Shown in pieces: positions 5,517 through 33,514 of a stretch of DNA of 64,000 nucleotides. Within the stretch, counting starts at the first letter, position 1, and each line of letters opens with the position of its first letter. The position numbers were made by a program, and so were the translations under genes. Origin of the DNA: an uncultured Gammaproteobacteria bacterium (lineage in GTDB: Bacteria > Patescibacteriota > Microgenomatia > UBA8517); assembly GCA_964587425.1 (NCBI GenBank), contig CAZPLB010000003.1:60763-124762 (forward strand). The letters are read 5' to 3'. The notes under the pieces were generated by a model. It was not told the DNA's origin. It ran no database searches and was given only the letters and a program-made list of their open reading frames with translations.

Positions 5517-7496
5517 ATGCAATTAATTATTGTTGAGTCGCCAACCAAAGCAAAGACACTTGGTAAATTTCTTGGAAAAGATTACCAGGTAGAGGCAACC
5601 ATGGGCCATATCAAAGATCTCCCCAAGTCAAAGCTTGGAATTGATATTGAAAATAATTTCAAACCAGATTATGTTGAAATGCCAAAGAAAGTTGATACCA
5701 TCAAAAATCTCCAAAAGATAGCTAAAAATGCAGAAGTGATATTTATAGCTACAGACCCTGATCGTGAGGGGGAAGCCATAGCAAGTCATGTCAAAGAAAT
5801 TGTAGGAAATGGTAAAACAAAACGTGTTACCTTCCATGAAATTACAAAGGAAGCTGTTGAAGATGCCATTGCCCACCCAAAGGAAATTGATGAAAACCTA
5901 GTTGATGCACAAATTGGAAGACGAGTGTTAGATCGCCTTGTTGGCTATGAACTCTCTCCCTTGCTATGGAGAAAAATAAGAAGAGGATTGTCAGCAGGCC
6001 GTGTTCAATCAGTTGCAGTAAGACTCATTGTTGAAAAAGAAAAAGAAATTGAAAAGTTTAAAGCAGAGGAATACTGGGAAATATTCTCTGTTGTGAAATC
6101 AAAAAAAGAATTCACAGTTCAGTTGATGAAGACAAAGGTCACAGATAAAAAGAAGGCAGATGAAGTAGTAGGAGACTTAAAAAAAGCAAAACACATCGTC
6201 TCAGGTGTTAAAAAAAGAGAAGTATCAAAAAATCCATATCCACCATTTACCACCTCCACCATGACCCAATCTGGAGCCAGAGTCTTTGGTTGGAGTGCAA
6301 AGAGAACAATGAGTGTAGCCCAGAAGCTATATGAAAAAGGTTTAATTACATATCACAGAACCGACTCAACAAATATTGCTGCTGTTGCCATTACAAAATC
6401 AAGAGATTTCATAAAAACAAATTATGGAGAAAAATATTTACCAGCCACTCCAAAGTTTTACAAAATAAAATCCAAAGTCGCACAGGAAGCCCATGAAGCA
6501 ATTCGTCCAACAAATATAAATAAAGAATTAAGTGAAAAAATCCCAGCTGATTTCAAAAAATTATATGACCTCATTTGGAGAAGATTTATGGCCTGCCAAA
6601 TGAACCCATCCATCTATGATGAAACGGCAATTGATGTCACTGCAAATGAATACAAATTAAGAGCCTCAGGCCAGATAATGAAATTTGATGGATGGAGAAA
6701 AGTAATTCCTTCAAAAATGACAGAAGAAGGCGGTATTGAATTGCCTGAAGTAAAAGCAGGTGAAGAACTCGAGCTTGTAAGAGTTGACTCATTTCAAAAG
6801 TTCACCCAACCGCCAGCTAGATTTAATGAGGCGTCCCTCATTAAAATGCTTGAAAAGTTAGGAATAGGGAGACCTTCAACATATGCCCCAATTATTACTA
6901 CAATTCAAATAAGGCAGTATGTAGAAAAAAAGGAGAGACAGTTTTTTGCAACCTCAGTCGGAATTGCAGTAACAGAATTTCTTCTTGAAAATTTCCCAGA
7001 AGTTCTGGATTACAAATTCACGGCCGATATGGAAGATGATTTAGATAAAGTTGCAAATGGAGAAAGAGACTGGCAGAAAGAAATAAAAACTTTCTACAAG
7101 CCATTTCACAAAAAACTAACAAGTGTCACCAAAAACTCAAAGAGGGTAGCTATCCCCACAGAAAAATTGGGGAGAGAGTGTCCTGAATGTAAAACGGCAA
7201 GAGAGGCAGGGGATAAAAATAGAAATGGGGAATTGGTAATTAGAGTTGGAAGATTTGGAAAATTTATTTCCTGCTCACTCTTTCCAGAATGCAAATACAC
7301 AGAGAAGTTCTTAGAAAAAATAGGGATGACATGCCCGGACTGTAAAGAGGGGGAAGTGATAGTTAAAAAAACTGGAAAAGGAAGACCATTCTTTGGCTGC
7401 AGCCGTTACCCAGATTGTAAATGGGCCAGTTGGAAAAATCCTAAGCTGGCCTCTCAGGATAATAAGTCTCCCAAAAAATCCGATAATGCAGTTTGA
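5517..7496 (+). CDS. topA: DNA topoisomerase I
   Basis: 659 aa; TOPRIM N-terminus 'IIVESPTKAKT', active-site Tyr region, C-terminal Cys4 zinc ribbons (CPECK...C...C, CPDCK...C...C); TGA stop. Confidence 0.9.
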   Translation: MQLIIVESPTKAKTLGKFLGKDYQVEATMGHIKDLPKSKLGIDIENNFKPDYVEMPKKVDTIKNLQKIAKNAEVIFIATDPDREGEAIASHVKEIVGNGKTKRVTFHEITKEAVEDAIAHPKEIDENLVDAQIGRRVLDRLVGYELSPLLWRKIRRGLSAGRVQSVAVRLIVEKEKEIEKFKAEEYWEIFSVVKSKKEFTVQLMKTKVTDKKKADEVVGDLKKAKHIVSGVKKREVSKNPYPPFTTSTMTQSGARVFGWSAKRTMSVAQKLYEKGLITYHRTDSTNIAAVAITKSRDFIKTNYGEKYLPATPKFYKIKSKVAQEAHEAIRPTNINKELSEKIPADFKKLYDLIWRRFMACQMNPSIYDETAIDVTANEYKLRASGQIMKFDGWRKVIPSKMTEEGGIELPEVKAGEELELVRVDSFQKFTQPPARFNEASLIKMLEKLGIGRPSTYAPIITTIQIRQYVEKKERQFFATSVGIAVTEFLLENFPEVLDYKFTADMEDDLDKVANGERDWQKEIKTFYKPFHKKLTSVTKNSKRVAIPTEKLGRECPECKTAREAGDKNRNGELVIRVGRFGKFISCSLFPECKYTEKFLEKIGMTCPDCKEGEVIVKKTGKGRPFFGCSRYPDCKWASWKNPKLASQDNKSPKKSDNAV

Positions 7497-8107
7497 GTTG
7501 CTTGACTATTCCTTTGCCTTGCCTCTCTACTTTTAATTACAACCTCTTTCGACTGAGTGATGGCCAACTTAAGTAATTCTTGAATCTTATCAACTTTATC
7601 CAAATTTGTAGCCACCAATCTTGCAGGTTTATCTTCACATGGAATAAACAACCCACCAAAATGCAAATGTTCAACAGAATCATAAGGCCTTAACTCAACT
7701 CTTTTCCCGTTTGTGTATTCATCGCGATAAGTCTTTTTGAACACATCAAGAATTGTAGGATCAATAAAATGTATAGATGTTGATAACTCGTGATAATCTA
7801 TTACCGCAAAAGCCTGTTGTCCACCTATCTCAAAAGGTATCATCCAACCTACAACTTCACCAAAATCCTCTTGTTCTTCTTTTTTTACTTTGTATTTGTC
7901 AGTATCTGAAGAAACATCCCCAGTATGTTCTACTGAAACTTTCTCAACTTGATCTCTTTTGGGATTCCATAATTCATTCAAAGCACCAGCCTCTTGAAGT
8001 ACTTGGATTGCCTCTTTTGCATGTTTTAAAGTATCTGCGTTATTTATGCCCAGCAACATTTCAAGACCGTTAGCTCCACTATCTTTTTCTTTTGACCCCA
8101 TAGTCAT
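7454..8107 (-). CDS. Hypothetical protein
   Basis: 217-aa ORF with no recognisable domain; its 3' end overlaps the topA 3' end by 43 nt (convergent). Confidence 0.5.
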   Translation of the reverse strand: MTMGSKEKDSGANGLEMLLGINNADTLKHAKEAIQVLQEAGALNELWNPKRDQVEKVSVEHTGDVSSDTDKYKVKKEEQEDFGEVVGWMIPFEIGGQQAFAVIDYHELSTSIHFIDPTILDVFKKTYRDEYTNGKRVELRPYDSVEHLHFGGLFIPCEDKPARLVATNLDKVDKIQELLKLAITQSKEVVIKSREARQRNSQATQTALSDFLGDLLS

Positions 8108-8172: not shown

Positions 8173-8988
8173 TTAAATCCATTGAGGAAAAGTAACTGGT
8201 CTGCCGTAGCGTTCTGATGAGCCTATTTTGTATTCCGGTATCACAACTTGATCTTCATTTCCCCCCATTGCCATCTGTGTCAATTTAACGGCCAAGTTAT
8301 AACTATTCCTTAATTCTGTTCTTCTTTGTGAAGTAAGTTCTCTCCCTCCCCTAATTCCACCTCTAAAGACTCTCTCAGACAACTCGTAAAGATTAAGAGA
8401 GGAGCTTGAGATAGCAAGTTCACGAATTGCGGCCAGCCCCAATGGCGTGGTGTCTGCGATAATCGAAGCGGTATCGGTCCAAATATTCAATATTGGTAGT
8501 ATCTGACCATGTACATTCCTGGGAGCAAATAAACAAGGTATTTTGAGCCACAAAGGTTGAATATTATATGAATTAATTTTCATAATTTTTTCACGATGAA
8601 CTCTAGTCGGATTTTCTCTGAGTACCTTTTTCATATATTTGGCTCGATGGATATACTCACCATTTAGAAAGTGACCTGGAACAAAGTGTCCATAATGTTT
8701 TATCACTAATTCTGGAATAGCTTCTTGTAACCGAGTAATGCAATTTGTAATTGCCCCATCTCTCCCTTTTGTAGAAAGTCCATGGTTTTGTAATACTACA
8801 TTGTCAAAATAACCATCACATTTCAAAAAAATTCGAAGTACATCAAATTCTAATCGAGTCAAAGGTATTTCTTTTAAGACGGTCTCTGTCTCTAAAAAGA
8901 CAGGATACAACGGAACCCTTTCAGATTTGCGACCCAAAAGTGAATAGGAACTAGAACTTTCACTAATTTCTACATTCATTCTCTCCAT
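8173..8988 (-). CDS. Hypothetical protein; GC visibly above window background
   Basis: 271-aa ORF with no recognisable domain. A hand count of its first 100 nt gives ~45% GC against ~34-39% elsewhere. Confidence 0.5.
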   Translation of the reverse strand: MERMNVEISESSSSYSLLGRKSERVPLYPVFLETETVLKEIPLTRLEFDVLRIFLKCDGYFDNVVLQNHGLSTKGRDGAITNCITRLQEAIPELVIKHYGHFVPGHFLNGEYIHRAKYMKKVLRENPTRVHREKIMKINSYNIQPLWLKIPCLFAPRNVHGQILPILNIWTDTASIIADTTPLGLAAIRELAISSSSLNLYELSERVFRGGIRGGRELTSQRRTELRNSYNLAVKLTQMAMGGNEDQVVIPEYKIGSSERYGRPVTFPQWI

Positions 8989-9017
8989 CGCGAGTATTAT
9001 ATCTAAAAATTAACTCC

Positions 9018-9046
9018 TTGACACACTACGTTAAAAAATATATTAA
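9018..9046 (+). promoter_or_regulatory. Candidate sigma70-like promoter of the dcd-dut-thyX operon (TTGACA-17-TATTAA)
   Basis: TTGACA 9018-9023, 17-nt spacer, TATTAA 9041-9046, start codon at 9056 (near-leaderless). Confidence 0.35.
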
Positions 9047-9055
9047 ATATAGTGC

Positions 9056-9754
9056 ATGGCAAGAGAGCATTTCTTCGAAACTGGTCCTACACAATCTCTT
9101 CTTTCCCGAGAAACAATTCTTTATGAGATGCGACAAGGCAGTGTTGTTATAGACCCTTTTAATGAAAGTCAATTAAATACTGTGAGCTATGATGTCACAC
9201 TTGGGTCTCATTATTATCGTCCTAATCCAAATCACGGTCTCCGCGTCTACAATCCATGGAACGAGGATCATGTAAGAAGGTATTGGGGAGAGCCCTACGA
9301 AGCAAAAACTGCTTGGGAAGAATTTCGTGGAGATTGTCATGAGTTTGGCTTAAATGCTAACGACAGAGTAATCATTTTACAGCCCAAGGAAATGATACTA
9401 GGTCACACAAACGAGTTTATTGGTGGAAAAGGAACTGTGGCACCCATGATGAAGGCACGCTCTTCTATTGGTAGAAACGGCGACGTTGTATGTAAATGTG
9501 CAGGTTGGGGAGACATCGGCTACACAAATCGATGGACCATGGAAATTGAAAGTAGTTTGAGTATACCTAGTATCTTAATTATTGGTGAAAGTGTTGCACA
9601 AATTGTCTTTTTCAAAACTGATCCAATATTAGGTCAGGATTACACTTCAGGTGGTAAGTATCAGGATACAGATGATATGGATACTATTAAAAGCCAATGG
9701 TCACCAGAATCTATGTTGCCAAAATTGTGGAAGGATAGGATGAAAAGCAAATGA
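9056..9754 (+). CDS. dcd: dCTP deaminase-family protein (Dcd-like, extended)
   Basis: 232 aa. Alignable with Dcd: 'LSRETIL...VIDPF...TVSYDVTLG', 'KARSSIGRNG' (Dcd GRSSLARLG), 'GWGD', 'AQIVFF'. About 40 aa longer than canonical Dcd because of an internal insertion. Confidence 0.7.
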   Translation: MAREHFFETGPTQSLLSRETILYEMRQGSVVIDPFNESQLNTVSYDVTLGSHYYRPNPNHGLRVYNPWNEDHVRRYWGEPYEAKTAWEEFRGDCHEFGLNANDRVIILQPKEMILGHTNEFIGGKGTVAPMMKARSSIGRNGDVVCKCAGWGDIGYTNRWTMEIESSLSIPSILIIGESVAQIVFFKTDPILGQDYTSGGKYQDTDDMDTIKSQWSPESMLPKLWKDRMKSK

Positions 9755-10194
9755 AATTAAAAACAAAAAGGATAGACAAATCTTTAGAGCTTCCAAAATA
9801 TGAAAAAGGAGCAGCCTGTTTCGACTTTGTTTGTCGTGAAGACGCTACCATTAAACCAAAAGAAATAAAACTAGTTCCATCAAACTCAGTCATTAAGGTG
9901 CCTGTTGGATACTCAATTTTAATTTTTTCAAGAAGCAGCACCCCTTTGAGGAAAGGCTTGATGTTGGCTAATGGAGTTGGAGTGTTGGATTCTTTTTATT
10001 GTGGTGATAAAGATGAAATAATGCTCGAGTTTATGAATATTTCAAATAAAATTGTGGAAATAAAAAGGGGAGAAAAACTTGCTCAGGGAATGTTAATTAA
10101 GCATGAAACAGTAGAATGGGAAGAGGTTGAAAAAATGGAAGATAAAGGTCGCGGAGGATATATTACTGATTTAAACATAAAAAATAAAAAATGA
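9751..10194 (+). CDS. dut: dUTP diphosphatase (trimeric dUTPase)
   Basis: 147 aa; motifs 'RSS', 'GVLDSFYCG' (dUTPase motif III, GxxDxDYRG-like), C-terminal 'RGGYIT' (motif V, RGxxGFGS-like). Confidence 0.85.
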   Translation: MKLKTKRIDKSLELPKYEKGAACFDFVCREDATIKPKEIKLVPSNSVIKVPVGYSILIFSRSSTPLRKGLMLANGVGVLDSFYCGDKDEIMLEFMNISNKIVEIKRGEKLAQGMLIKHETVEWEEVEKMEDKGRGGYITDLNIKNKK

Positions 10195-11132
10195 ACACAG
10201 AAAGAAACGAAACAAAACAGAGAGTAAATGCAGGAGCAGAAGAACACCTCGGTATACCAATTCCTGTTCTAGATCATGGCTTCGTAATTCTTGTAGGATA
10301 CATGGGTGACGATCAATCAATAGAAGAAGCAGCGAGAATCTCATACGGTGGTGGTACTAGGTCTGTGAACGAGAGAACAGGTTTGATTAGGTATTTGAGA
10401 CGAAACAAACATACAACTCCTTTTGAGATGGCAGAACTGAAGTTCCATATAAAGATCCCGTTATTTGTTCTTGCACAGATGATTAGACATAGAACAGCAA
10501 ATATTAATCAATTATCGGCTCGTTATTCAGTTATGGACAACGAATTCTATATTCCCGAACCTGAAAATATTGGAATTCAATCGTCAACAAATAGGCAGGG
10601 TAGAGGCCAGGAAGTTGAAGCTAGTCGTGCAGACGAATTTAAGCGATGGTTGATAACGACAGCAATGTTAAGTTACGAAAAGTACGAAGATTTTCTAAAC
10701 GATGACGGAAAAGGTAAACCCAAAAATCCAGATGAACCTATGATTGCGCGTGAATTATCTCGCATGGGTCTGCCACAGAATCTTTATACGCAATTAGTTT
10801 GGAAATGTGATTTACATAACATATTTCATTTTTTAGGGCTTCGTATGGAAAAACACGCACAATGGGAGATTAGAGAATATGCAAACGCGATGGCAACTGT
10901 TGTTAAGGACAGTTTCCCGATTGCATACAAAGCTTTTGAAGACTATGAATTAAATGCGACTCAACTTTCAGCACCAGAAAAAAATATACTAACGGAACTG
11001 ATTATCTCGAAGGGAATTGCCATTACTTTAGAAGAAGTTTATAAACTTGCAGATCAAACGGGTTTAACAAACAAAAGAGAACGAGAAGAATTAATTAATA
11101 AATTTCGCACAATCGAACTGTTGAAAGAATAA
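10191..11132 (+). CDS. thyX: Flavin-dependent thymidylate synthase ThyX
   Basis: 313 aa; ThyX signature 'RHRTANINQLSARYS' (RHR...S-x-RY); about 70 aa of C-terminal extension beyond typical ThyX. Confidence 0.85.
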   Translation: MNTERNETKQRVNAGAEEHLGIPIPVLDHGFVILVGYMGDDQSIEEAARISYGGGTRSVNERTGLIRYLRRNKHTTPFEMAELKFHIKIPLFVLAQMIRHRTANINQLSARYSVMDNEFYIPEPENIGIQSSTNRQGRGQEVEASRADEFKRWLITTAMLSYEKYEDFLNDDGKGKPKNPDEPMIARELSRMGLPQNLYTQLVWKCDLHNIFHFLGLRMEKHAQWEIREYANAMATVVKDSFPIAYKAFEDYELNATQLSAPEKNILTELIISKGIAITLEEVYKLADQTGLTNKREREELINKFRTIELLKE

Positions 11133-11135
11133 CCG

Positions 11136-11597
11136 ATGAATATATACTTTGCAGGTTCGATGGCCGGTGGACAACAATATAAACCTGGAATGGACTTAAT
11201 TGTTGAAGAATTAAGACATCAAGGACATCACATTATGACTGGATTTGTGGTTGGTGAAGAATACGAAGATGGGTACCCAACAAATAATGCGTGGGAAAGA
11301 GACATTCCTTTGTTGCAAGAATGCGATGCAGTTGTCGCCGAAGTTTCACAACTTTCAACAGGAGTTGGAATTGAACTTGGTGTCGCATCAGTAGCATTCG
11401 GAAAACAAATATTATGTCTAAGGGACAAGACACTGGAGCCAACACGTTTATCTCAACTGATAACAAAAGGTCCCTTTATCACCTCACATTACGACCCAAA
11501 GAATAGAGAAGATTTACGAAGTTTATTAAAATATTTTTGTGCACATGTAGGCAACGAAATAGAAAAACAGCAAACAAGAAGAGAGACGGAACTATAA
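11136..11597 (+). CDS. DNPH1/Rcl-like 2'-deoxynucleoside 5'-phosphate N-hydrolase (nucleoside 2-deoxyribosyltransferase superfamily)
   Basis: 153 aa; 'MNIYFAGSMAGG' (DNPH1 YFCGSIRGG) and 'CDAVVAEVSQLSTGVGIELGVASVAFGKQILCL' (DNPH1 ADVVVAEVTQPSLGVGYELGRAVALGKPILCL). Confidence 0.65.
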   Translation: MNIYFAGSMAGGQQYKPGMDLIVEELRHQGHHIMTGFVVGEEYEDGYPTNNAWERDIPLLQECDAVVAEVSQLSTGVGIELGVASVAFGKQILCLRDKTLEPTRLSQLITKGPFITSHYDPKNREDLRSLLKYFCAHVGNEIEKQQTRRETEL

Positions 11598-11601
11598 AAT
11601 T

Positions 11602-12267
11602 ATGTTAATAACTTTTGAAGGGGGGGATGGTGGCGGTAAAACAACTCAAATTGTAGAATTATGTACAAAAATTCGCGCGTTAGGTATCACATGCTCCCTT
11701 TTCAGAGAACCAGGTAGTACAACTATTGGTGATCAAATTAGAGAAATTCTTCACAGCATGGACAACAAGGACAAAATGCAGCCAATGACAGAACTCTTAC
11801 TCTTTGCAGCATCACGAGCACAACTCGTCAGAGAAAAATTACTGCCGGCATTAGAACACGGGGTTGTTGTCCTAGATCGTTTTACGGATAGCACCCTCGC
11901 ATACCAAGGTGGAGGTCATGGTGTAGATGAAGAGATTTTAAGAAGTTTAAACTCTTACGCAACAGGCGGCCTTATTCCAGATTTGACCTTCTTGTTAGAT
12001 ATCGAGCCAGAAATTGGCTTACAAAGAAGACTTGCCGGTCTTGCATTTGGTGAAGAGTGGACAAGATTAGATGACATGGCTATGGATTTTCATCAAAAAG
12101 TGAGATCAAAATATCAAGAAATATCAGGACGCGATGGTGGCGGCAGGTGGGCCATCATTAATGCAAACAATGATCAAGAAACTATTGGCAATGTTATTTG
12201 GCACATAACTGAACAGAGACTAAAGACAAACGGAGTTATAGAAGGGCAGATTAGAAAGGAGAGGTAG
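11602..12267 (+). CDS. tmk: Thymidylate kinase
   Basis: 221 aa; P-loop 'ITFEGGDGGGKTTQ', 'DRF..S..AYQG' LID/DRX motif. Confidence 0.85.
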   Translation: MLITFEGGDGGGKTTQIVELCTKIRALGITCSLFREPGSTTIGDQIREILHSMDNKDKMQPMTELLLFAASRAQLVREKLLPALEHGVVVLDRFTDSTLAYQGGGHGVDEEILRSLNSYATGGLIPDLTFLLDIEPEIGLQRRLAGLAFGEEWTRLDDMAMDFHQKVRSKYQEISGRDGGGRWAIINANNDQETIGNVIWHITEQRLKTNGVIEGQIRKER

Positions 12268-12869
12268 TGGCGGAGAAATTAAGAGCAGTTGTGGGTTGTA
12301 TGTTTTCAGGAAAATCAGACGAGCTCCTTCGACGTGTAACCAGAGCAGAGATTGCAGGACGAAGTGTTCTTGTCTTTAAACCAATAATAGATGACAGATG
12401 GAATAAATTGGAATCAGTTAGATCTCATGCAGGTGGCGAACATGAAGCAATAGCAATAAATAAGCCTTGTGAAATTTTAGAATATATTGGTAAAAATACA
12501 AAGATGGTAGCGGTTGATGAAATACAATTTCTTGATAATACAATAGTTCCAGTAATACTTGCCCTCTTGGAGAGAGATATTGAAGTTAACTTTGCAGGTT
12601 TACCGCTTGATTTCAAAGGTGAACCATTCGGCTCAATGCCAGAACTTTTGGTAAGAGCAGATGAGATATTAAGACTCACAGCAATTTGTACATTTAAAGA
12701 TAACGGTGAAATCTGTGGAGAGGACGCTACAAGAACTCAGAGGCTGGTTAACAATGAACCAGCAAAATGGGATGATCCAGTTGTTTTGATTGGAGCCCAG
12801 GAATCGTATGCCCCTCGTTGTCCAACTCACCACATTATTCCTGGTAAACCGCCTATTATGTTAAAATAG
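12267..12869 (+). CDS. tdk: Thymidine kinase
   Basis: 200 aa; P-loop 'GCMFSGKSDELLRR', 'VFKP..D.R', C-terminal Cys-rich zinc ribbon (C..C...C..H). Confidence 0.85.
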   Translation: MAEKLRAVVGCMFSGKSDELLRRVTRAEIAGRSVLVFKPIIDDRWNKLESVRSHAGGEHEAIAINKPCEILEYIGKNTKMVAVDEIQFLDNTIVPVILALLERDIEVNFAGLPLDFKGEPFGSMPELLVRADEILRLTAICTFKDNGEICGEDATRTQRLVNNEPAKWDDPVVLIGAQESYAPRCPTHHIIPGKPPIMLK

Positions 12870-12876
12870 CCTCACT

Positions 12877-14100
12877 GTGGACAAAATTACTTCTCTCATA
12901 AAACTGGAAGAAAAACGTCAGAAGGAAACTCTCATGATGATTCCTTCTGAAAATTATACTTACCCTGAAGTTCGTACCGCAGTTGGCTCAGTTCTAATGC
13001 ATAAATATTCAGAAGGTTATCCAGGTAAAAGATACTACCAAGGAAATGAATTTATAGATGAAATTGAAAACATTGCAATTGAGGCAGCTATGAAACTTTT
13101 CAAAGTACCACATGCCAATGTCCAACCATATTCTGGTTCTCCAGCAAATGCAGCTGTATATATGGCACTAATGAACCCAGGTGAAACATTGATGGGAATG
13201 AGTTTGTCAGCGGGAGGTCATTTAACTCATGGACATCCAAAAATTACTTTCTCTGGAAAGTTTTTCAATAGTGTCCAATATGGAGTAACAAAAGATGGAT
13301 GGATTGATTATGACGAAGTAAAAAAGTTAGCCAAACATGAAAAACCAAAAGTAATTGTAGCAGGGTTAACTGCATACCCCAGAAATATTGATTGGAAAAA
13401 GTTTGCAGAAATTGCCGATTCAGTTGGAGCATATCTAGTTGCAGACATTTCCCATATAGCTGGTCTTGTTGCAGCCAGTATCATTCCAAGCCCTATTCCT
13501 TTTGTTCACGTCGTGACAACGACAACACATAAAACATTAAGAGGTCCAAGAGGGGCAATCATTATGGTCACCAAAAAGGGGATAGAGAAAGACCTAGATC
13601 TCCCTAAAAAAATAGACAGAGCAGTTTTCCCTGGGATGCAGGGAGGACCGCACAACAATACAACAGCAGGAATTGCAATAGCTCTCGAAAAAGCACAGAA
13701 ACAAGAATTTAAAAAATATGCAAAGAATATAGTTTCAAATGCAAAAAATTTGGCAGAAGAATTAAAGAAAAATAATTTTAATTTGGTAACAGATGGAACA
13801 GATAATCATCTTGTGCTAATCGATCTTCGCAACAAAAATATTGGAGGCAAAGATGCTGCCATACTTTTGGAGAAAGCGGGCATAGTAGTTAATTACAATG
13901 CAATTCCATTTGATCCAAACCCTCCGATGAATCCTTCCGGTATTCGTCTTGGGACACCTGCAATTTCAGTCCGGGGAATGGGGAAGACTGAAATGAAATT
14001 AATTGCAAAGTGGATGAGTGATGTAATTTCAAATCCTTCTTCTGCAAAAAAAGTAAAAAAAGAAGTCCAAAAACTGTGTTCTAAATTTCCATTACAGTAA
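12877..14100 (+). CDS. glyA: Serine hydroxymethyltransferase
   Basis: 407 aa; 'SENYTYPEVR...YSEGYPGKRYY', PLP-lysine region 'VTTTTHKTLRGPRG'. Confidence 0.9.
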   Translation: MDKITSLIKLEEKRQKETLMMIPSENYTYPEVRTAVGSVLMHKYSEGYPGKRYYQGNEFIDEIENIAIEAAMKLFKVPHANVQPYSGSPANAAVYMALMNPGETLMGMSLSAGGHLTHGHPKITFSGKFFNSVQYGVTKDGWIDYDEVKKLAKHEKPKVIVAGLTAYPRNIDWKKFAEIADSVGAYLVADISHIAGLVAASIIPSPIPFVHVVTTTTHKTLRGPRGAIIMVTKKGIEKDLDLPKKIDRAVFPGMQGGPHNNTTAGIAIALEKAQKQEFKKYAKNIVSNAKNLAEELKKNNFNLVTDGTDNHLVLIDLRNKNIGGKDAAILLEKAGIVVNYNAIPFDPNPPMNPSGIRLGTPAISVRGMGKTEMKLIAKWMSDVISNPSSAKKVKKEVQKLCSKFPLQ

Positions 14101-14173
14101 TTTTCCCCGTATCAAATTACCCAAAAAACAGGTATAATTACCCAAAGTTGGAGACAACTTTTTTTAATACCAA

Positions 14174-14983
14174 ATGACAACTACAATATTTGACGGGAAG
14201 ACTTTTGCAAAGGAAAGAGAGAAACTTCTTAAACTAAAAGTAAAAGAATTGAAGGCGACCAAAGGCGTACCAAAACTTGTAGCAATTCTAGTAGGCCGAG
14301 ATAAAGCAAGTTTAATATATACAAACCTCAAGAAAAAAACTGCAGAGAGAGTTGGCATTAAGTTTCAAGTTGTGAAATTTCCATCAACTACTGACTACAA
14401 AGAAATCATCAAAAAAATCAAAGAATTGAATAAGGAAGATAGTGTCCATGGAGTTATGGTTCAATTGCCTCTCCCCATTGAACTAAAAAAGAAAACAAGA
14501 GTTATCTTGCAGTCCATAGACAAAAACAAAGATGTTGATGGATTAAGAGTCAAAAGCATTTATACCCCAGCAGCTGTCAAAGCAGTAAGTGAAATCATTC
14601 AATATGTAATTAAACCTTTGGCATATATAGGTAAAAAGGCAGCAGTAGTAGGAGCAGCAGGAACTGTAGGAAAAGGGGTAACCAAAGAATTAACTAGAAT
14701 GGGATTCAAAGTATGTGAGTGTGAGAAAGGAACAAGAGATTTATATGCCAAACTTCATGAAGTTGATATTGTAGTTAGTGCAACTGGAGTACCAGGATTA
14801 ATATCTAGCCAAATGTTGAAAGAAGGTGTTGTTGCAATTGATGTTGGAGCTCCAAAGGGAGACATTGATTACAAGGCAGTGTCAAAGATGGCCTCCTTTG
14901 TCACCCCAGTTCCAGGTGGAGTAGGACCCGTCACAATTATTTGTCTTCTTGAAAATTTAGTTGAAGCTTGTTATAAAAAGTAG
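14174..14983 (+). CDS. folD: Bifunctional 5,10-methylene-THF dehydrogenase/cyclohydrolase FolD
   Basis: 269 aa; 'IFDGK..A......L...V......G..PKLVAILVGRD.AS..Y', Rossmann 'VVGAAGTVGKG', 'PGGVGPVT'. Confidence 0.85.
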   Translation: MTTTIFDGKTFAKEREKLLKLKVKELKATKGVPKLVAILVGRDKASLIYTNLKKKTAERVGIKFQVVKFPSTTDYKEIIKKIKELNKEDSVHGVMVQLPLPIELKKKTRVILQSIDKNKDVDGLRVKSIYTPAAVKAVSEIIQYVIKPLAYIGKKAAVVGAAGTVGKGVTKELTRMGFKVCECEKGTRDLYAKLHEVDIVVSATGVPGLISSQMLKEGVVAIDVGAPKGDIDYKAVSKMASFVTPVPGGVGPVTIICLLENLVEACYKK

Positions 14984-15346
14984 ATGCCCGTTGAACAATT
15001 CACAAGCCCCAGAGGAGAGAGTCTAATAAAAGTAGTCACAAAACATGGCAAATATAATTGGGTTAACTACTATGAAAACATAGATGCTGCCCTGAAAGGA
15101 TACAAAGAATCGCGTAGTTATTTAAACTTCATGGTGATGCTGTCAGCAGGAATTTCCATTGGAACTATTGTTACAAGTCTAACAATGTTACTTAAAGATC
15201 CTAATGTTGGACCACTTCAAATTGCTGGCATTATCTCACCTATCGGACCTGGAATGATTGGAATTGCATCATTTTTTGACAGTAGAAGTAAACTAAATTC
15301 TGTCAAAAGTACAATACCGGAAATTGAGAACTTCAAAAATAGTTGA
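14984..15346 (+). CDS. Hypothetical membrane protein
   Basis: 120-aa ORF with one or two hydrophobic helices; no domain recognised. Confidence 0.45.
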   Translation: MPVEQFTSPRGESLIKVVTKHGKYNWVNYYENIDAALKGYKESRSYLNFMVMLSAGISIGTIVTSLTMLLKDPNVGPLQIAGIISPIGPGMIGIASFFDSRSKLNSVKSTIPEIENFKNS

Positions 15347-15376: not shown

Positions 15377-15646
15377 ATGAGACAAGAATTTGAAGGTTGG
15401 AGCTTAGAGGATCTCCAATTCTTTCGTAAAGAAGCAAGTGAAACAAAGTTATGGCTAGGGGCCTTTGAATTCTTGGGTCTTATGGGTACATCTGTAGTAT
15501 GTGCGGCTTCACGGGATCTTAAAACAGGAGTTATTTGCACGGTTTCACTTGCTACCGGTCTAATTGTTTCTGAAGGAGTACGTAAACTAGTAGGCAGAGA
15601 AATTGAAGCTGTTCAGGAAGCCATCCAAGAGACCATTGATAATTAG
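15377..15646 (+). CDS. Hypothetical small protein
   Basis: 89-aa ORF with one hydrophobic segment; no domain recognised. Confidence 0.4.
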   Translation: MRQEFEGWSLEDLQFFRKEASETKLWLGAFEFLGLMGTSVVCAASRDLKTGVICTVSLATGLIVSEGVRKLVGREIEAVQEAIQETIDN

Positions 15647-28565: not shown

Positions 28566-29963
28566 GTGAAACTATATAACTCCCTCACAAAAAAAGTAGA
28601 AGTCTTTGAACCCATTAACCCTCCAAATGTTGGAATGTATACCTGCGGCATTACAGCATATGATTATGCCCATATAGGCCACGGTAGGAAATATACCATG
28701 GATGATATTTTACGACGCAGTCTGGTTTATCAAGGATATAAAGTTAATCACGTTCAAAATGTAACTGATGTAGGGCATTTGAGTTCAGATTCAGATGCAG
28801 GTGAAGACAAACTTGAAAAAGGAGCAGTAAAGCAGGGCAAAACAGTTTGGGAAGTTGCAGAATTCTTTACCGAAAACTTCTACGAGCAAATGGACAAACT
28901 TAACATTTTGCGACCAACTGTAATTTGCAAAGCTACAGATAATATCCCAGAACAAATTGAATTAATTAAAAAAATAATTGCAAATGGTTATGGGTATGAC
29001 ACTCCTGAAGCAGTTTACTTTGATACTCAGAAATTCAAAGGATATGGAGAATTGTTTGGGCAAAAGCTTGAAGAAAAACAAATTGGAGTTCGAGAGGAAG
29101 TTCAAACTGATGAAAACAAAAAGCACCCCGCAGACTTTGCACTATGGTTCAAGCGCGTTGGAAGATTTGCTGACCACACCATGCACTGGAATAGCCCATG
29201 GGGAGATGGGTTTCCGGGTTGGCATATAGAGTGTTCTGCAATGAGCATAAAATATTTAGGTGAACAGTTTGATATCCACACTGGTGGAGAAGACCATCTT
29301 CCCATTCATCACCCCAATGAAATAGCACAATCAGAGGCGGGAACGGGCAAGCATCCATTTGTGAAGTATTGGCTGCATTATGCATTTTTAACTGTAGATG
29401 GAGTAAAGATGAGTAAAAGCCTTGGAAATTTCTATACTGTTGATGATGTAATCAAAAAGGGCGTTAATCCACTAGCCCTCAGATACTTTTACCTTTCTGC
29501 CCACTACAAAAAACCTCTGAACTTTACTTTTGAAGCATTGGAAGGTGCCCAAAACGCTCTCGGAAGACTCAAAAGTACCCTCTCTGAATTAAAAAAAGAA
29601 AAAGAAAGAAACGTTCTCTCTCCAGAAAAAGAAAAAAAGATAGATTTATATAGACAGAAATTCACAGATGCCATTTCAAACGACTTAAATACTCCAGAAG
29701 CTCTCGCTGTAGTTTGGGAAGTAGTAAAAAGCAACATCCCAAGCCTAGATAAATACGACCTTATAATTAGTTTTGATGAAGTTTTGGGTTTAAAGTTAAA
29801 CGAAGAAGAAACTAGCGAGAAACCTGTAGTTACAAAAGAAATGGAAGAGTTAATTAAACAAAGAGAAAACTTCAGAAAAGAAGGGAAGTATGAAGAAGCT
29901 GACAAGATTAGGGAAGAGTTAATGAATTTGGGATATACTGTAAAAGATGCCCCAGCCAAATAG
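28566..29963 (+). CDS. cysS: Cysteinyl-tRNA synthetase
   Basis: 465 aa; class-I 'HIGH' (AHIGHGRK) and 'KMSKS' (KMSKSLGN); Cys/His zinc ligands present. Confidence 0.9.
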   Translation: MKLYNSLTKKVEVFEPINPPNVGMYTCGITAYDYAHIGHGRKYTMDDILRRSLVYQGYKVNHVQNVTDVGHLSSDSDAGEDKLEKGAVKQGKTVWEVAEFFTENFYEQMDKLNILRPTVICKATDNIPEQIELIKKIIANGYGYDTPEAVYFDTQKFKGYGELFGQKLEEKQIGVREEVQTDENKKHPADFALWFKRVGRFADHTMHWNSPWGDGFPGWHIECSAMSIKYLGEQFDIHTGGEDHLPIHHPNEIAQSEAGTGKHPFVKYWLHYAFLTVDGVKMSKSLGNFYTVDDVIKKGVNPLALRYFYLSAHYKKPLNFTFEALEGAQNALGRLKSTLSELKKEKERNVLSPEKEKKIDLYRQKFTDAISNDLNTPEALAVVWEVVKSNIPSLDKYDLIISFDEVLGLKLNEEETSEKPVVTKEMEELIKQRENFRKEGKYEEADKIREELMNLGYTVKDAPAK

Positions 29964-30582
29964 CCAAAGACCAATCTACATCATTTTAATTCTCGCAATT
30001 ATCATTTCCATTGGCGGATTAGTATTTTCCCAGATGCAGCTTTCCCAGTTAAAGGAAGAAGTGTTTGTATTAACAAATTCGCCGTATAACCAATATGTTT
30101 CACCAACTCCATATGAACCTCAAATATCCATAACTCCAACCCCAAATGCACTGCCAGCAACCCCAACACCAACTCCAAAACCAACCGCAACTCCATTAGC
30201 TGTATCTCAATTCCCAAAAACTGTTTACGTACCCTTAGGTGGAGGAGGAAATACCCAAGCAACAGACTGGGTAGATGTTCCAAATGATGAGGTATGGCTT
30301 GATTTTGGTTCAGAATTTGGAAGTAAGGCCAAAGCAGTTTTTGAAGGAATCTTGAGAGTAGACAATGCAAATGGAACTGCATATGCAAGACTCATAGATG
30401 CAACTCATGGCATTGCAGTTAATGGTTCAGAAATAAGTTTGGAGAATAATTCACAGTTTAGTTTGAGTGTTTCGGGAAACCTTACTTTCTGGGCTGGGAA
30501 GAATTTGTATAAAGTTCAAATCAAATCTCTAAATTCCTCAACAATATATCTTGATTCAGCAAGGATTAAAGTAAGCTATTGA
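29947..30582 (+). CDS. Membrane-anchored protein with Pro/Thr-rich linker and extracytoplasmic beta-rich domain
   Basis: 211 aa; TM helix 'IYIILILAIIISIGGLVF', then 'TPTPNALPATPTPTPKPTATP' linker; globular C-terminal domain unassigned. Confidence 0.5.
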   Translation: MPQPNSQRPIYIILILAIIISIGGLVFSQMQLSQLKEEVFVLTNSPYNQYVSPTPYEPQISITPTPNALPATPTPTPKPTATPLAVSQFPKTVYVPLGGGGNTQATDWVDVPNDEVWLDFGSEFGSKAKAVFEGILRVDNANGTAYARLIDATHGIAVNGSEISLENNSQFSLSVSGNLTFWAGKNLYKVQIKSLNSSTIYLDSARIKVSY

Positions 30583-30615
30583 TTACGAATATCTAGTCTA
30601 GTAGAATACCTACAC

Positions 30616-32697
30616 TTGATGGAACTCTATCCAATTAGGTATAAATCTCCGATTTTAGATGCCAATGGGCAAATACAGGACTTTCATGAAGTTGAAGTTT
30701 ATCCAACCTCTCTAACTGATAGAGTGATAGCTTCGCAATCTCCAATAGAACAAGAAAGATTAGTAAGAAAACAGCTCACTTATCAAAGAGAATCAGTGGC
30801 AAATTTTGTGGGATTAGAAAAAGATGTAGAAATTACTTCGACAACACTCCATCTTGCCGAGTTAGCACTGGATCTAGAGGCAAGATCTTTCCACACAAAC
30901 TATTTAAAAGCACGTTATGGAGAAGCACGAAGTATTTACGAAACTGACAAGAAAGTACTGAAAGGTAAGAGGAAATACAATAGGGTGGAACAATGGCAAA
31001 AAGAAAAAAATACATGGGAACAGATTATTGATGATGCCAAGATTTTGGAGGGCTGCATTGCCAATATTATTGTAAAAGATTTTTTTTTGACAGAAGGTGG
31101 CATAGGACAACTCGAAATAGCAATTGAAGAGATCAGAGAAAGTGCCCCTGAATCTATAGAGAATATAAGAAAACTGTTGGGTTTCGCATCAGAGTCTCTA
31201 GGAGAAACTAGAATAATAAAAGACCCATCTGGATTTAGATATAAAACTCAAGATGGACAAACAATTACATCCCAGACAGATGGTGTATTAAAATCGATTA
31301 CGGAAAGAGCGTTTGACCCTCAAGAGAAGGATCCTGTATCTAATGGAATAAGTGAAATCTCACAAGAAATCTTAGAGTTCTACTGGAAAAACGCCACAAG
31401 TGTATTAGATAAGTCGGAATATCCTCTAATTTCAATCACATACGATATTCTTTACTCTGCAAGTGATACGTTTAACCCCGAACTTTTTACACTTTGCATG
31501 ACTTGGTTAAACAGCAAAATTAATTCTCACAAAAATCGCTACTCCACCGAGTTCAATCTTTTCGTGGACCATTGTTTTCAGGATTTTTTGAAACAAACCA
31601 GGACTACCCTGCATTCAAATTTAAGATTCAGACCTGATATTTCCGAGGAACAAAAAATCCTAGAAGGTATACAAACTGTTCAAAGTTTTTGGGTATTTAC
31701 TCAAAACAAAAAGGGTGTGTTTGTAGTCAGTGGAGACGAAAACAGATTTAAATCACTTAGCGACGACGAACAGAGAGTGCTTACTCAATTAATAGATCAC
31801 TCTGCTTTTACTGCATATTTAATGGATTCCGTCACATCAAATGTCAGCTCATTCCTGCCAGAACATATGATAAATAATAGGTTGCTTGAATTAAATTTAC
31901 TATCAGCCGCATTGAGGGATTATGAAGAAGCTGGATTATTGAGACACATTTTAAATAAAGACGAATTAATAGAAGAAGGCAACTTAACGAATCTTTTTGG
32001 AACTAAAACCAATAAGATGGAGCCCAAAAATTACATTGTTAGGCACAAAGAATTACAAGATCAATATAAAAATATTAGGGATAACTATCAATATTTTATT
32101 GCTCTTAATGGCGACCAGTTTATTGCACAGTATGACGAAGACCTAAGAATAAATGGTGTGCAAAGTATTACTTTTTTTTCAATTCACAGCAGACCACAGA
32201 GCCACAAGGTTATTATTCGCACAAACGAAGTATCTGCCACATTTTATATCAGTGAAAACGGTAATCTCATGCACCCTTCAGGAAAACAAACAAGATTACC
32301 ACTTTATGTTGTAAACAAGATTACAAATATTATTTTCTCCAGACTCGAATACATAACGAGCGGGGAAGCATTTCGTGGACAAAATGAAAACGGAGACACA
32401 ATAGAAAGAGAGGATAAACAGGCAAGATTAATACTCGCACGAAGATCTCATTGGAGGAAGTTGCCAGGAGATAGATACACACTTGAATCTAAAACCGCAA
32501 AAGAACATATACAAGAGGTGTTCGAAGATTACGGTATCAGTACCTGGCAGGAAATCCTAAGGAGAAGAGTAAAAGGAACTTTATCCCCTCAAGAAGTAAT
32601 GACTTATGTCAAAACGGTCCTAAAACCAGGAGCCGAACCAAATATTATAAAATATGAACCAAATTCAAAAGTTGCAACTTCCCAGTCTAACTTGTAA
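30616..32697 (+). CDS. Large orphan cytoplasmic protein (693 aa)
   Basis: Uninterrupted 693-aa ORF with no TM segments and no recognisable motifs. Confidence 0.55.
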   Translation: MMELYPIRYKSPILDANGQIQDFHEVEVYPTSLTDRVIASQSPIEQERLVRKQLTYQRESVANFVGLEKDVEITSTTLHLAELALDLEARSFHTNYLKARYGEARSIYETDKKVLKGKRKYNRVEQWQKEKNTWEQIIDDAKILEGCIANIIVKDFFLTEGGIGQLEIAIEEIRESAPESIENIRKLLGFASESLGETRIIKDPSGFRYKTQDGQTITSQTDGVLKSITERAFDPQEKDPVSNGISEISQEILEFYWKNATSVLDKSEYPLISITYDILYSASDTFNPELFTLCMTWLNSKINSHKNRYSTEFNLFVDHCFQDFLKQTRTTLHSNLRFRPDISEEQKILEGIQTVQSFWVFTQNKKGVFVVSGDENRFKSLSDDEQRVLTQLIDHSAFTAYLMDSVTSNVSSFLPEHMINNRLLELNLLSAALRDYEEAGLLRHILNKDELIEEGNLTNLFGTKTNKMEPKNYIVRHKELQDQYKNIRDNYQYFIALNGDQFIAQYDEDLRINGVQSITFFSIHSRPQSHKVIIRTNEVSATFYISENGNLMHPSGKQTRLPLYVVNKITNIIFSRLEYITSGEAFRGQNENGDTIEREDKQARLILARRSHWRKLPGDRYTLESKTAKEHIQEVFEDYGISTWQEILRRRVKGTLSPQEVMTYVKTVLKPGAEPNIIKYEPNSKVATSQSNL

Positions 32698-32706
32698 AGT
32701 TAAAGC

Positions 32707-33510
32707 ATGAGAAAGATATTCTTAATCCTAGTATTCACTTTTTTAACACTAGGTACCTTCAAAAGCGTAAAAGCCCAAACCTTTGACTATAATCGTGCAT
32801 ACCAGGATTATGTATATAACCTTAGTCTCTACCAGAAAGCACACACTGATTACCAACTGGCAAGAGCTGCGTACCTGCAGTCCCAAACTTCAGGAACAAC
32901 AGGAGATGCAGTTAAAGCAACACGTACTATGCTTGAGGCCAGAGATAGTGTAGTAATCACATATCTTACAGCTATTCGTATGAAGCTTCTTGAAACAAAA
33001 GGAGTAAGTGATTCTGAAAAATCAGGTTACTTCACCCAAATTGATACAGAAGTATCATGGTGGGGAAGCCACAAAGCAAGGTTAGAGAGTGCCGGAAGCC
33101 TAGATGACTTAGTATCCGATTCAGATGAAGCAAAAGATCACTTTGGACCAGCAAAGATATTAATGTATCAAACATTAATTGAAATTGGAGTAAGTGAAAC
33201 AACATATCAAAGAACTGCAATGAAATCAGTAATTGATCTTTTAAATCAAAAAATTGCAGAAATACGCTTGAATGGTGACAAAGACACCACCTCAATTGAA
33301 AGATTTTTAGTTGAAGTAAATAATAAACTAAGTAGAAGTGAAGTGAAAGAAGGAGAGGCTAAAAACATAGTTAGTTCCATAAAACCAACAACCCAGGACA
33401 CATCAAGCGCTTTCCAAACTGCAGTATCAGATGTTGAAGATTCTCTTTTGTACCTGAAGGAAGCAAACAAGAATTTGAAAGAAATTGTAACTCAGATAAA
33501 AACAAACTAA
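32707..33510 (+). CDS. Secreted alpha-helical hypothetical protein
   Basis: 267 aa; cleavable-looking signal peptide 'MRKIFLILVFTFLTLGTFKSVKA|Q'. Confidence 0.5.
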   Translation: MRKIFLILVFTFLTLGTFKSVKAQTFDYNRAYQDYVYNLSLYQKAHTDYQLARAAYLQSQTSGTTGDAVKATRTMLEARDSVVITYLTAIRMKLLETKGVSDSEKSGYFTQIDTEVSWWGSHKARLESAGSLDDLVSDSDEAKDHFGPAKILMYQTLIEIGVSETTYQRTAMKSVIDLLNQKIAEIRLNGDKDTTSIERFLVEVNNKLSRSEVKEGEAKNIVSSIKPTTQDTSSAFQTAVSDVEDSLLYLKEANKNLKEIVTQIKTN

Positions 33511-33514
33511 AAAT

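Follow-up and report, generated by a model that had tools for sequence, protein, structure and literature searches.

Why would a gene whose nearest relatives of solved structure are N-glycosidases of deoxynucleotides lie in the middle of a set of genes for making thymidylate? The question is raised by a 64,000-nucleotide stretch of contig CAZPLB010000003.1 (assembly GCA_964587425.1, positions 60,763 to 124,762; hereafter the window, in whose numbering positions are given unless a relative is named), where eight plus-strand open reading frames (ORFs) at 9056-14983 encode, in this order, dcd, dut, thyX, a DNPH1-like protein of 153 aa, tmk, tdk, glyA and folD (Table 1). The explanation preferred here, which we hold to be somewhat better than an even bet, is that these genes form a thymidylate-supply module equipped with a 2'-deoxynucleoside 5'-monophosphate (dNMP) N-glycosidase that would remove unwanted deoxynucleotides before they reach the thymidylate kinase Tmk.

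Assignment of the 153-aa protein to the DNPH1 family was supported by sequence, family profile and predicted fold, as the initial annotation had proposed when it aligned the gene with eukaryotic DNPH1/Rcl. The Pfam model that it matches (PF05014, cut-off 28.8) covers both nucleoside 2-deoxyribosyltransferases (NDTs) and DNPH1, and among NCBIfam models there was no match. In a single-sequence search, the best relatives of solved structure were human and rat DNPH1 (E ~9e-12 over residues 3-96; ~33-37% identity), and a CMP N-glycosidase was returned at E 0.58. A profile built from 27 family sequences (alignment A1) matched rat Rcl over its full length at 8e-43; E-values lay between 1e-8 and 1e-6 for the nucleotide N-glycosidases BcmB, BlsM and MilB and were no better than 1e-5 for true NDTs. 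The protein was modelled as a monomer with AlphaFold 2 (AF2; predicted local distance difference test score 96.3, predicted template-modelling (TM) score 0.91), and when this model, which has a short helix at residues 107-110, was compared with the PDB using Foldseek, the top 43 matches were all DNPH1 (target-normalised TM-score ~0.8), with BcmB next and then NDTs. A grouping with NDTs, proposed at the outset as a check, was thus not what was found: profile and fold both lie nearer DNPH1. Names given automatically to two relatives differ, that of P0003 in UniRef being '2'-deoxynucleoside 5'-phosphate N-hydrolase 1' and that of P0004 at NCBI nucleoside 2-deoxyribosyltransferase. We regard DNPH1-family dNMP N-glycosidase chemistry as probable for the 153-aa protein.

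Catalytic residues were compared using the roles defined for human DNPH1, and conservation was counted in 141 aligned relatives. In the human enzyme Tyr24, Asp80 and Glu104 form the triad, Ser98 and Ser128' (the latter from the helical extension of the partner subunit) form the phosphate pocket, Arg30 and His56 contact O4 and O2 of 5-hydroxymethyl-deoxyuridine (hmdU), and Glu55, in the LTEHV motif, is needed for hydrolysis of the glycosyl-enzyme intermediate, which becomes trapped when this residue is mutated (PMC10603095). The triad corresponds to Tyr4, Asp56 and Glu80 of the 153-aa protein, conserved in 125, 135 and 136 of the 141 relatives, respectively, and the phosphate serines correspond to Ser74 (141/141) and Ser106 (117/141); at the second of these, profile alignment with rat Rcl places 'lSa' opposite 'LSA'. 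Fold, triad, both serines and the short helical extension that bears the second serine are all shared with human and rat DNPH1.

NDTs belong to the same superfamily and share the covalent glutamate mechanism and the Tyr/Asp/Glu triad, but they bind the nucleoside 5'-OH through Asp92 and Asn123, positions at which the 153-aa protein has predicted phosphate-binding serines. Alignment of the family with the Lactobacillus leichmannii NDT by hhalign (sequence 100% identical to PDB 1F8X; probability 63% over 97 columns) places Asp92 opposite Ser74, and Ser106 lies at the offset expected for Asn123, although the alignment itself stops at query residue 98. The swap of Asp92 for Ser74 is what separates nucleotide-specific from nucleoside-specific enzymes, and Tyr4, which is Phe in MilB, points to selectivity for deoxyribose.

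The part of the pocket that faces the base has been rebuilt. Human Arg30, Arg33, Glu55, His56 and Ile76/His77 are replaced by Ala10, Gln13, Gly36, Phe37 and Ala52/Trp53, respectively; among the 141 relatives, Arg is present at the first position in 68, Glu at the third in 77 (another residue in 64) and His at the fourth in 100. The 'TGFV' signature that contains Gly36 and Phe37 is confined to four Woesebacteria sequences, and an alignment of these four matched none of the species-representative genomes searched. Within this clade a loop reading G46-Y47-P48...N51-A52-W53-x-R55-D56-I-P-L-L-Q-E is invariant, whereas the shielding loop of DNPH1 is not conserved. A wider subfamily has in common Phe37, the motif 'LRHxSL' and, at the C-terminus, an 'EG...RERE' tail that DNPH1 lacks; in the 153-aa protein this extra helical tail ends in its version of the conserved RE-rich motif, 'RRETEL'. 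Canonical prokaryotic DNPH1-like proteins (from the candidate phyla radiation (CPR), DPANN archaea, Chloroflexota, Syntrophia and others) are of the same family and size and, unlike the 'GF' of the window clade, keep equivalents of Glu55 and His56 in a 'TEH[IV]' motif, usually with Arg at the positions of Arg30 and Arg33. Because the base-facing residues are replaced while the triad and serines are kept, chemistry and phosphate specificity can be predicted with good confidence; base specificity cannot, and the monophosphate hmdUMP should not be assumed to be the substrate.

All eight genes of the cluster could be assigned to families. Successive junctions measure -4, -4, +3, +4, -1, +7 and +73 nt, in agreement with the gaps or overlaps of at most about 70 nt first noted for these co-directional genes, and the ORFs and their Pfam matches confirmed contiguous coding for the route from dCTP through dUTP, dUMP and dTMP to dTDP together with the supply of methylene-tetrahydrofolate (CH2-THF). 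The Pfam matches of all eight proteins exceed gathering cut-offs, and curated NCBIfam cut-offs were passed by ThyX (TIGR02170, 175.8 vs 87.9), Tmk (TIGR00041, 156.7 vs 83.25), Tdk (NF003296, 220.1 vs 183) and GlyA (NF000586, 564.3 vs 335); the ThyX translation also contains the RHRtaninqlS signature. FolD matched both of its Pfam domains (dehydrogenase and cyclohydrolase) and reached 195 bits against a cut-off of 355 for the best NCBIfam equivalog, while Dut scored 83-86 bits with NCBIfam dut models, under cut-offs of ~103, and passed a Pfam cut-off of 22. Read by eye, motifs I-IV of Dut can be made out (SRSS, GVLDSFY, KLAQ); a degenerate motif V has GRGGY in place of the RGxxGFGS(T)G of the canonical CPR Dut at locus L025. 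Scores under the NCBIfam cut-offs for Dcd, Dut and FolD, plus the unmatched 153-aa protein, fit a divergent lineage.

The co-directional run continues unbroken past folD through two small ORFs, rpsB, tsf, frr and further genes. The first small ORF starts with the base that directly follows the stop codon of folD, and no Pfam model matched it; in the relatives L002 and L005/L006 gene calling gives nothing between folD and rpsB, and both small ORFs are probably outside the thymidylate pathway. When 8800-17600 was scanned for promoter and terminator consensus sequences, counts equalled chance and no transcript boundary emerged, at the 3' end or elsewhere. A search of the whole window (1-64000) with Rfam at the gathering threshold gave zero matches, not even a tRNA, and thus no riboswitch ahead of the cluster. 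With transcript signals at chance level, 'eight-gene operon' is used here for a functional grouping, and transcript limits are not drawn.

Relatives place the locus in a definite lineage. The identical 153-aa protein is on record in one NCBI contig and in a Logan contig whose genes are in the same order, and its close relatives (55-68% identity) come solely from Candidatus Woesebacteria. A search of 1.84 billion representatives gave 369 clusters at E <= 1e-3 and a single one at E <= 1e-30, which points to a small and divergent Woesebacteria clade. The remaining genes of the window are typical CPR housekeeping genes (mreB, PBP2, dprA, topA, rpsB-tsf-frr, rseP, dnaX, recR, cysS, ssb and dnaB). 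In relatives the locus is syntenic and bounded by topA and rpsB, and the recurrence of the same gene order in independent Woesebacteria assemblies means that the arrangement is not due to chance. We are highly confident that the cluster is a thymidylate-supply module conserved in the lineage of this Woesebacteria-like CPR bacterium, and equally so of its status as a lineage-typical operon in the functional sense given above. Between topA and the cluster lie two minus-strand ORFs of 217 and 271 aa for which a Pfam search was blank; both are also present in L001, and L005/L006 have at the same position a 219-aa minus-strand gene, likewise blank in Pfam.

Two positions in the syntenic block vary. 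dUMP is supplied by Dcd and Dut in the window, by MazG and a 207-aa Dcd in L002/L003, and in L005-L007 by a dCMP deaminase; the slot for thymidylate synthase contains a ThyX of 313 aa in the window, a ThyX of 636 aa in L005-L007 and a ThyA-like protein in L002. The last (8117-9983 of L002) is ~620 aa long, with 390 N-terminal aa of unassigned kind and a highly divergent ThyA-like C-terminus (E 2e-4 against PDB ThyA), and its ORF is interrupted by a masked run of N. 'Long ThyX' proteins of ~570-640 aa with two Thy1 stretches were found in L005 (8094-10004), L011 (3907-5712) and L046 (5208-6923). The swaps at both positions are non-orthologous replacements. The DNPH1-like gene, tmk, glyA and folD are constant across the Woesebacteria relatives; tdk occurs in some of them but not in L005 and L006, which retain the DNPH1-like gene. 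Across these exchanges the DNPH1-like gene stands out as part of the module's core and not as a passenger.

Two further features had made the cluster look unusual, and both proved ordinary. The first was base composition, from which a mosaic origin had been hinted at. GC content was computed as 40.2% for dcd, 32.9% for dut, 37.5% for thyX, 38.5% for the DNPH1-like gene, 41.4% for tmk, 39.3% for tdk, 37.2% for glyA and 36.4% for folD, so that the hand-counted values (~43% for thyX, ~39% for tmk and ~34-35% for dut and glyA) were wrong; GC at third codon positions (GC3) ranged over 0.254-0.329. The 54 ORFs of the window of at least 150 aa average 37.9 +/- 2.4% GC and 29.0 +/- 4.0% GC3. With GC and GC3 inside the spread of the window and the locus syntenic in relatives, a mosaic or horizontally acquired origin of the cluster was ruled out; a conserved locus with uniform codon usage, the outcome that had been named as telling against such an origin, is what was observed. 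The sole clear compositional outlier of the window is a 194-aa ORF (GC 26.7%, GC3 19.5%), which has no Pfam match and shares 4 nt with the start of ychF.

The second feature was the length of the Dcd homolog. Its DCD Pfam match is accompanied by a TIGR02274 score of 78.4, under the equivalog cut-off of 92.8, and its PDB relatives include Dcd 4xjc (6.6e-11) and the Methanocaldococcus jannaschii bifunctional DCD-DUT (1e-9). More than 2,400 homologs are detectable, mostly from Patescibacteria; the best 120 are 48-58% identical, measure 216-244 aa (median 228 aa; one outlier of 301 aa) and, where named, are Patescibacteria, and an amoebozoan protein with 51% identity (P0277) is also among the matches. 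The catalytic motifs ARSSxGR (ARSSIGR in the window), GWGD and WTMEI are kept at >=90% across these 120 relatives. Against E. coli Dcd, which served as a length ruler only, an extra internal segment of ~12 residues with a family-conserved 'vWG.p..A' pattern was found, as the initial annotation had noted; its description of the protein as atypical did not hold, the extra segment being conserved across the 120 relatives as a lineage-typical loop. A C-terminal extra tail ('W.P..MLPklw.Dr') is likewise conserved, whereas ~13 extra N-terminal residues fall where the family has no conservation and may reflect start-codon choice. Compared with the 204-aa M. jannaschii DCD-DUT, the internal region is ~5 residues longer. 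Dictyostelium Dcd2, which complements E. coli delta-dcd, has prokaryotic relatives mainly in CPR and Chloroflexi (PMC10733785), and it is with this type of dCTP deaminase that the window protein shares its internal and C-terminal extra segments and its catalytic motifs. By these comparisons the window Dcd is lineage-typical, an atypical Dcd was ruled out, and the protein is very probably a functional dCTP deaminase.

To place the DNPH1-like gene in a wider setting, one genome per prokaryotic species was scanned with the subfamily alignment A3, which gave at least 541 relatives, and the best 80 loci were analysed. They are spread over CPR phyla, archaea (DPANN and others), Chloroflexota, Syntrophia, Bacteroidota, Acidobacteriota and further groups. 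Neighbours were identified in two ways, by searching flanks with the window proteins and by clustering all neighbouring ORFs without prior choice, and the two pictures agree. The commonest neighbour was glyA, within 3 kb of the DNPH1-like gene in 12/80 loci and directly adjoining it in ~10, in both orders and across several CPR classes and archaea (a naive binomial P of ~1e-14 for at least 10 direct adjacencies, which ignores phylogeny). Further recurrent neighbours were long ThyX (5), dihydrofolate reductase (DHFR; 5), Dut (4), CPR-type Dcd (3-4) and also Tmk. At least one thymidylate or folate gene was present within 3 kb in 10 of the 24 CPR loci, 4 of the 10 archaeal loci and three loci of unclassified metagenome-assembled genomes (MAGs). 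The best species-representative match (L011, 43% identity, 'TPFV') has long thyX, the DNPH1-like gene and tmk in succession with 4-nt overlaps, and in L046 a DNPH1-like-Tmk fusion is encoded beside long thyX, glyA and folD. Canonical prokaryotic genes in CPR and DPANN likewise lie beside glyA, dut, dcd, tmk, DHFR or thyX, and since the linked homologs mostly carry the canonical TEH[IV] motif, linkage to thymidylate genes is a property of the family in small-genome lineages and not of the Woesebacteria variant alone. At the position of Arg30 (query residue 10), a residue other than Arg was found in 11/17 linked and 14/63 other homologs (Fisher p 0.002, uncorrected, also for phylogeny), the replacement in linked genes being Ser, Thr or Ala (L011-L090).

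A different pairing was seen in 11 loci of Syntrophia, 'delta-proteobacterial' and Acidobacteria-type genomes (L029, L030, L031, L035, L041, L050, L057, L061, L065, L066 and L083), in which a Peptidase_U32 + DUF3656 protein of ~630 aa directly follows a canonical DNPH1-like gene. Other U32-family proteins hydroxylate RNA pyrimidines and quinones independently of O2.

To survey domain fusions, Pfam was run on 20 representatives with several domains, including a DNPH1-like one. Partners were NUDIX (3), thymidylate kinase (2: P0038 and P0074, with L046 additional), the ITPase/XTPase-type NTPase_I-T (DUF84; 2), dCMP/cytidine deaminase (1: P0086), a SAM methyltransferase (1), DUF1801 (1) and DUF4269 (1), with one tandem duplication; no second Pfam domain was found in 8/20. 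Proteins with a recognised fusion or duplication are P0036, P0042, P0058, P0067, P0137, P0086, P0038, P0074, P0077, P0047, P0100 and P0012. NUDIX and NTPase_I-T belong to the classic house-cleaning hydrolases of (d)NTPs. Their fusion to a dNMP N-glycosidase gives what would be a two-step disposal line, from dNTP to dNMP to base and deoxyribose 5-phosphate (dR5P), analogous to the phage DutZ-DmtZ pair, in which a dNTPase acts with a DNPH1-like dNMP hydrolase in the two-step disposal of dATP (PMC12884076). The dCMP deaminase and Tmk found as fusion partners correspond to the two enzymes on either side of the DNPH1 substrate in humans, where hmdUMP is produced by DCTD and would be phosphorylated by DTYMK (PMC10603095).

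On the proposed mechanism, dCTP is taken to dUMP by Dcd and Dut, ThyX methylates dUMP to dTMP with CH2-THF that GlyA makes and FolD interconverts, salvaged thymidine or deoxyuridine enters through Tdk, and Tmk forms dTDP. By homology, the 153-aa enzyme would act on dNMPs by double displacement, with attack of Glu80 at C1' giving a covalent deoxyribosyl-5-phosphate-enzyme ester, Asp56 serving as acid/base, Tyr4 positioning the nucleophile and selecting deoxyribose, and Ser74 and Ser106 (the latter from the partner subunit) clamping the 5'-phosphate. It would so act as a gatekeeper at the dUMP/dTMP node, splitting unwanted or non-canonical dNMPs to free base and dR5P ahead of Tmk. Candidate sources of such dNMPs are scavenged foreign DNA, deaminated modified dC nucleotides and derailed thymidylate-synthase intermediates; 5hmdUMP is known as an acid-trapped intermediate of ThyX (PMC3498832). 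In humans DNPH1 acts upstream of thymidylate kinase in the hmdUMP circuit and blocks DTYMK-dependent incorporation of hmdU (PMC10603095), and in the window the 153-aa gene precedes tmk. Two roles had been suggested at the outset, pool sanitation and salvage in an organism lacking de novo synthesis, and this is the earlier reading that the neighbourhoods and domain fusions back best. From context and analogy we put forward the sanitising role tentatively, at a little short of even.

Several points weigh against it. The residues that recognise hmdU in the human enzyme, Arg30 and His56, are Ala10 and Phe37 here, and hmdUMP is not established as a substrate; Glu55, which releases the covalent intermediate, is Gly36, and efficient hydrolysis is not guaranteed. 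Linkage fits a sanitiser, a hydrolase for salvage or catabolism and a biosynthetic transferase alike, and fusion to Tmk would suit successive steps of biosynthesis just as well. The thymidylate/folate linkage was seen in 0 of ~40 loci in other phyla, being limited to CPR, DPANN and a few unclassified MAGs, and its statistics take no account of phylogeny. Co-transcription of the cluster is presumed, transcript signals being at chance level. In the searchable literature no activity data for prokaryotic DNPH1 homologs were found, and papers sought on DNPH1 in prokaryotes, NDT-like genes of CPR and ThyX-derived hmdUMP yielded passing annotations (PMC12636525) and the acid-trapped ThyX intermediate mentioned above, with no description of the linkage.

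The competitor that survives best, although we rate it rather unlikely, is broad catabolism or salvage of dNMPs, in which surplus scavenged dNMPs would yield bases for phosphoribosyltransferases and dR5P for DeoC and central carbon metabolism. This would be the deoxy counterpart of the nucleotide-to-carbon salvage of CPR and DPANN, and the cluster would be a general grouping for 'deoxynucleotide economy'. The sequence, profile and fold evidence for the DNPH1 family serves it equally, scavenging lineages (CPR, DPANN, Chloroflexota and Syntrophia) are over-represented among homologs, and the remodelled, more aromatic pocket (Phe37, Trp53) could suit broad or purine substrates. Early work on Rcl reportedly found broad dNMP activity. 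A passage of PMC10483697 describes DNPH1 as an enzyme that 'accepts other dNMPs as slow-reacting substrates', and a SAR11 study interprets 'rcl' in the catabolic sense (PMC12636525). Left unexplained, however, are the partners glyA, thyX, tmk, dut, dcd and DHFR, as well as the fusions to NUDIX and ITPase-like house-cleaning domains; deoC and base-salvage families did not recur when neighbours were clustered, and deoC, nrd and base-salvage genes were not found within the 64-kb window when ~40 further ORFs were scanned with Pfam. Indiscriminate hydrolysis of dNMPs beside dTMP synthesis would, moreover, be futile.

Less probable still is a dR5P transferase like phage DmtZ, in which mainly a pyrimidine base, instead of water, would resolve the Glu80 intermediate, so that scavenged dNMPs with thymine or uracil would give dTMP or dUMP for Tmk or ThyX as a third entry into the thymidylate pool. 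Its precedent is DmtZ itself (from Ghobes, a phage of Gordonia, and Wayne, a phage of Arthrobacter), a dAMP hydrolase and dR5P transferase with a DNPH1-like fold that transfers dR5P to a base, is paired or fused with a dNTP pyrophosphatase and reshapes the deoxynucleotide pool (PMC12884076). DmtZ differs from the 153-aa protein in having Asn in its triad, Asp12 for adenine and a context of 2-aminoadenine DNA. Replacement of Glu55 by Gly36 and of the neighbouring His by Phe37 would make for a drier pocket, the gene lies exactly between thyX and tmk and also occurs fused to Tmk, both as expected of consecutive biosynthetic steps, and an additional C-terminal tail ('EG...RERE') is conserved in the clade. 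Class II NDTs have active sites into which the C-terminus of an adjacent subunit reaches. We know of no transfer activity for any cellular DNPH1 homolog, though, and with a residue other than Glu at the Glu55 position in 64/141 relatives its loss is not diagnostic; nor was similarity to phage proteins detected, a tblastn search of 50,697 phage records returning zero similarity to the 153-aa protein, DmtZ included. An argument from a 'transferase proline' at position 36 was dropped: Pro42, the conserved water-excluding proline of NDTs (Pro57 in DmtZ), does not align there but lies inside an NDT-specific insertion after query Val39 (the query has Val39/Gly40, and alignment confidence in this region is low), and the DmtZ P57A mutation is not decisive, having left the balance of transfer and hydrolysis unchanged (PMC12884076). 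A narrower form of the idea, that the 'TGFV' clade is not a hydrolase but a cellular dNMP:pyrimidine dR5P transferase making dTMP and dUMP, is a speculation to which we give no better chance; if true, it would be a new route into the thymidylate pool for users of foreign DNA and the first cellular counterpart of DmtZ.

A genuine NDT, exchanging bases between deoxynucleosides and providing thymidine for Tdk, is very improbable, for although the PF05014 match, the NCBI name of P0004 and tdk two genes downstream would suit it, the 5'-OH binders are replaced by the phosphate serines, the profile and structural matches described above favour DNPH1, and L005 and L006 keep the gene in genomes whose cluster lacks tdk. 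The same low standing falls to a modified-pyrimidine pathway of the kind to which the initial annotation had pointed through MilB/BlsM, in which a thymidylate-synthase-like enzyme would make a 5-substituted pyrimidine nucleotide and an N-glycosidase would then free the modified base. The Mil and Bcm pathways (MilA/MilB and BcmA/BcmB) have as their signature pairs of a ThyA-like hydroxymethylase and an NDT-fold glycosidase, and the gene does directly follow that of a thymidylate synthase, with the divergent ThyA-like protein of ~620 aa in that slot in L002. MilB, BlsM and BcmB keep the first phosphate serine and are encoded beside a thymidylate-synthase-like gene, but they are ribonucleotide-specific and lack the second serine; the 153-aa protein has Tyr4 where MilB has Phe17 and Ala10 in place of the Arg23 that binds phosphate and hydroxymethyl in MilB (PMC10603095), the profile separation (1e-8 to 1e-6 vs 1e-42) is wide, the neighbours tmk, tdk, glyA, folD and dut belong to core dTTP supply with no tailoring enzymes among them, and the window ThyX lies far above the thyX equivalog cut-off.

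Table 1. Coordinates of the thymidylate cluster and of other features mentioned in the text.
Feature	Position in window	Strand	Product and predicted reaction	Match
dcd	9056..9754	+	232 aa, CPR-type dCTP deaminase, dCTP -> dUTP	Pfam DCD 102.3 bits
dut	9751..10194	+	147 aa, divergent trimeric-type dUTPase, dUTP -> dUMP + pyrophosphate	Pfam dUTPase 59.7 bits
thyX	10191..11132	+	313 aa, flavin-dependent thymidylate synthase, dUMP + CH2-THF -> dTMP	Pfam Thy1 171 bits
DNPH1/Rcl-like gene	11136..11597	+	153 aa, 2'-deoxynucleoside 5'-phosphate N-glycosidase homolog	Pfam Nuc_deoxyrib_tr 39.6 bits
tmk	11602..12267	+	221 aa, dTMP kinase, dTMP -> dTDP	Pfam Thymidylate_kin 143 bits
tdk	12267..12869	+	200 aa, GTG start, thymidine kinase, thymidine/deoxyuridine -> dTMP/dUMP	Pfam TK 125 bits
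glyA	12877..14100	+	407 aa, serine hydroxymethyltransferase, source of 5,10-CH2-THF	Pfam SHMT 523 bits
folD	14174..14983	+	269 aa, methylene-THF dehydrogenase / methenyl-THF cyclohydrolase	both Pfam domains, 110 and 115 bits
Two small ORFs between folD and rpsB	14984..15346 and 15377..15646	+	120 aa and 89 aa	
ORF between topA and cluster	7454..8107	-	217 aa	
ORF between topA and cluster	8173..8988	-	271 aa	
Four consecutive ORFs	29947..33985	+	211, 693, 267 and 156 aa	
Abi_alpha, Fic/DOC and NUDIX genes (coordinates as a set)	46753-47571, 38490-39464, 49391-50011	-		Pfam
ORF overlapping ychF start	50343..50927	+	194 aa	
dnaB	60348..62978	+	876 aa, with intein	Pfam Intein_splicing 98.6 bits, LAGLIDADG_3 76.6 bits

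Elsewhere in the window, DnaB carries an intein with a LAGLIDADG homing endonuclease inside its DnaB_C ATPase domain, and the four consecutive ORFs downstream of cysS are blank in Pfam. Minus-strand genes include those for an abortive-infection protein (Abi_alpha), a Fic/DOC protein with a C-terminal helix-turn-helix and a stand-alone NUDIX hydrolase, the last being unlinked to the thymidylate cluster.

The family of every gene in the cluster is already known, and automatic annotation calls a close relative of the 153-aa protein DNPH1; the physiological substrate of DNPH1 in humans was itself recognised recently. Within the bounds of the searchable literature, what appears to be new is the systematic presence of DNPH1-like genes in thymidylate and one-carbon clusters of CPR and DPANN, with fusions to Tmk, dCMP deaminase, NUDIX and ITPase-like domains, and a Woesebacteria-specific variant with a rebuilt base pocket. 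In these ultra-small scavengers, bacterial and archaeal, thymidylate synthesis has the DNPH1-like gene as its constant partner while the synthase and the suppliers of dUMP change. The Woesebacteria clade offers a natural variant in which substrate choice and the balance of hydrolysis and transfer in the DNPH1 fold can be studied. As a hypothesis, N-glycosidic removal of dNMPs may be an old safeguard of the dTTP supply line, and it would matter most where DNA is built from salvaged, possibly modified nucleotides.

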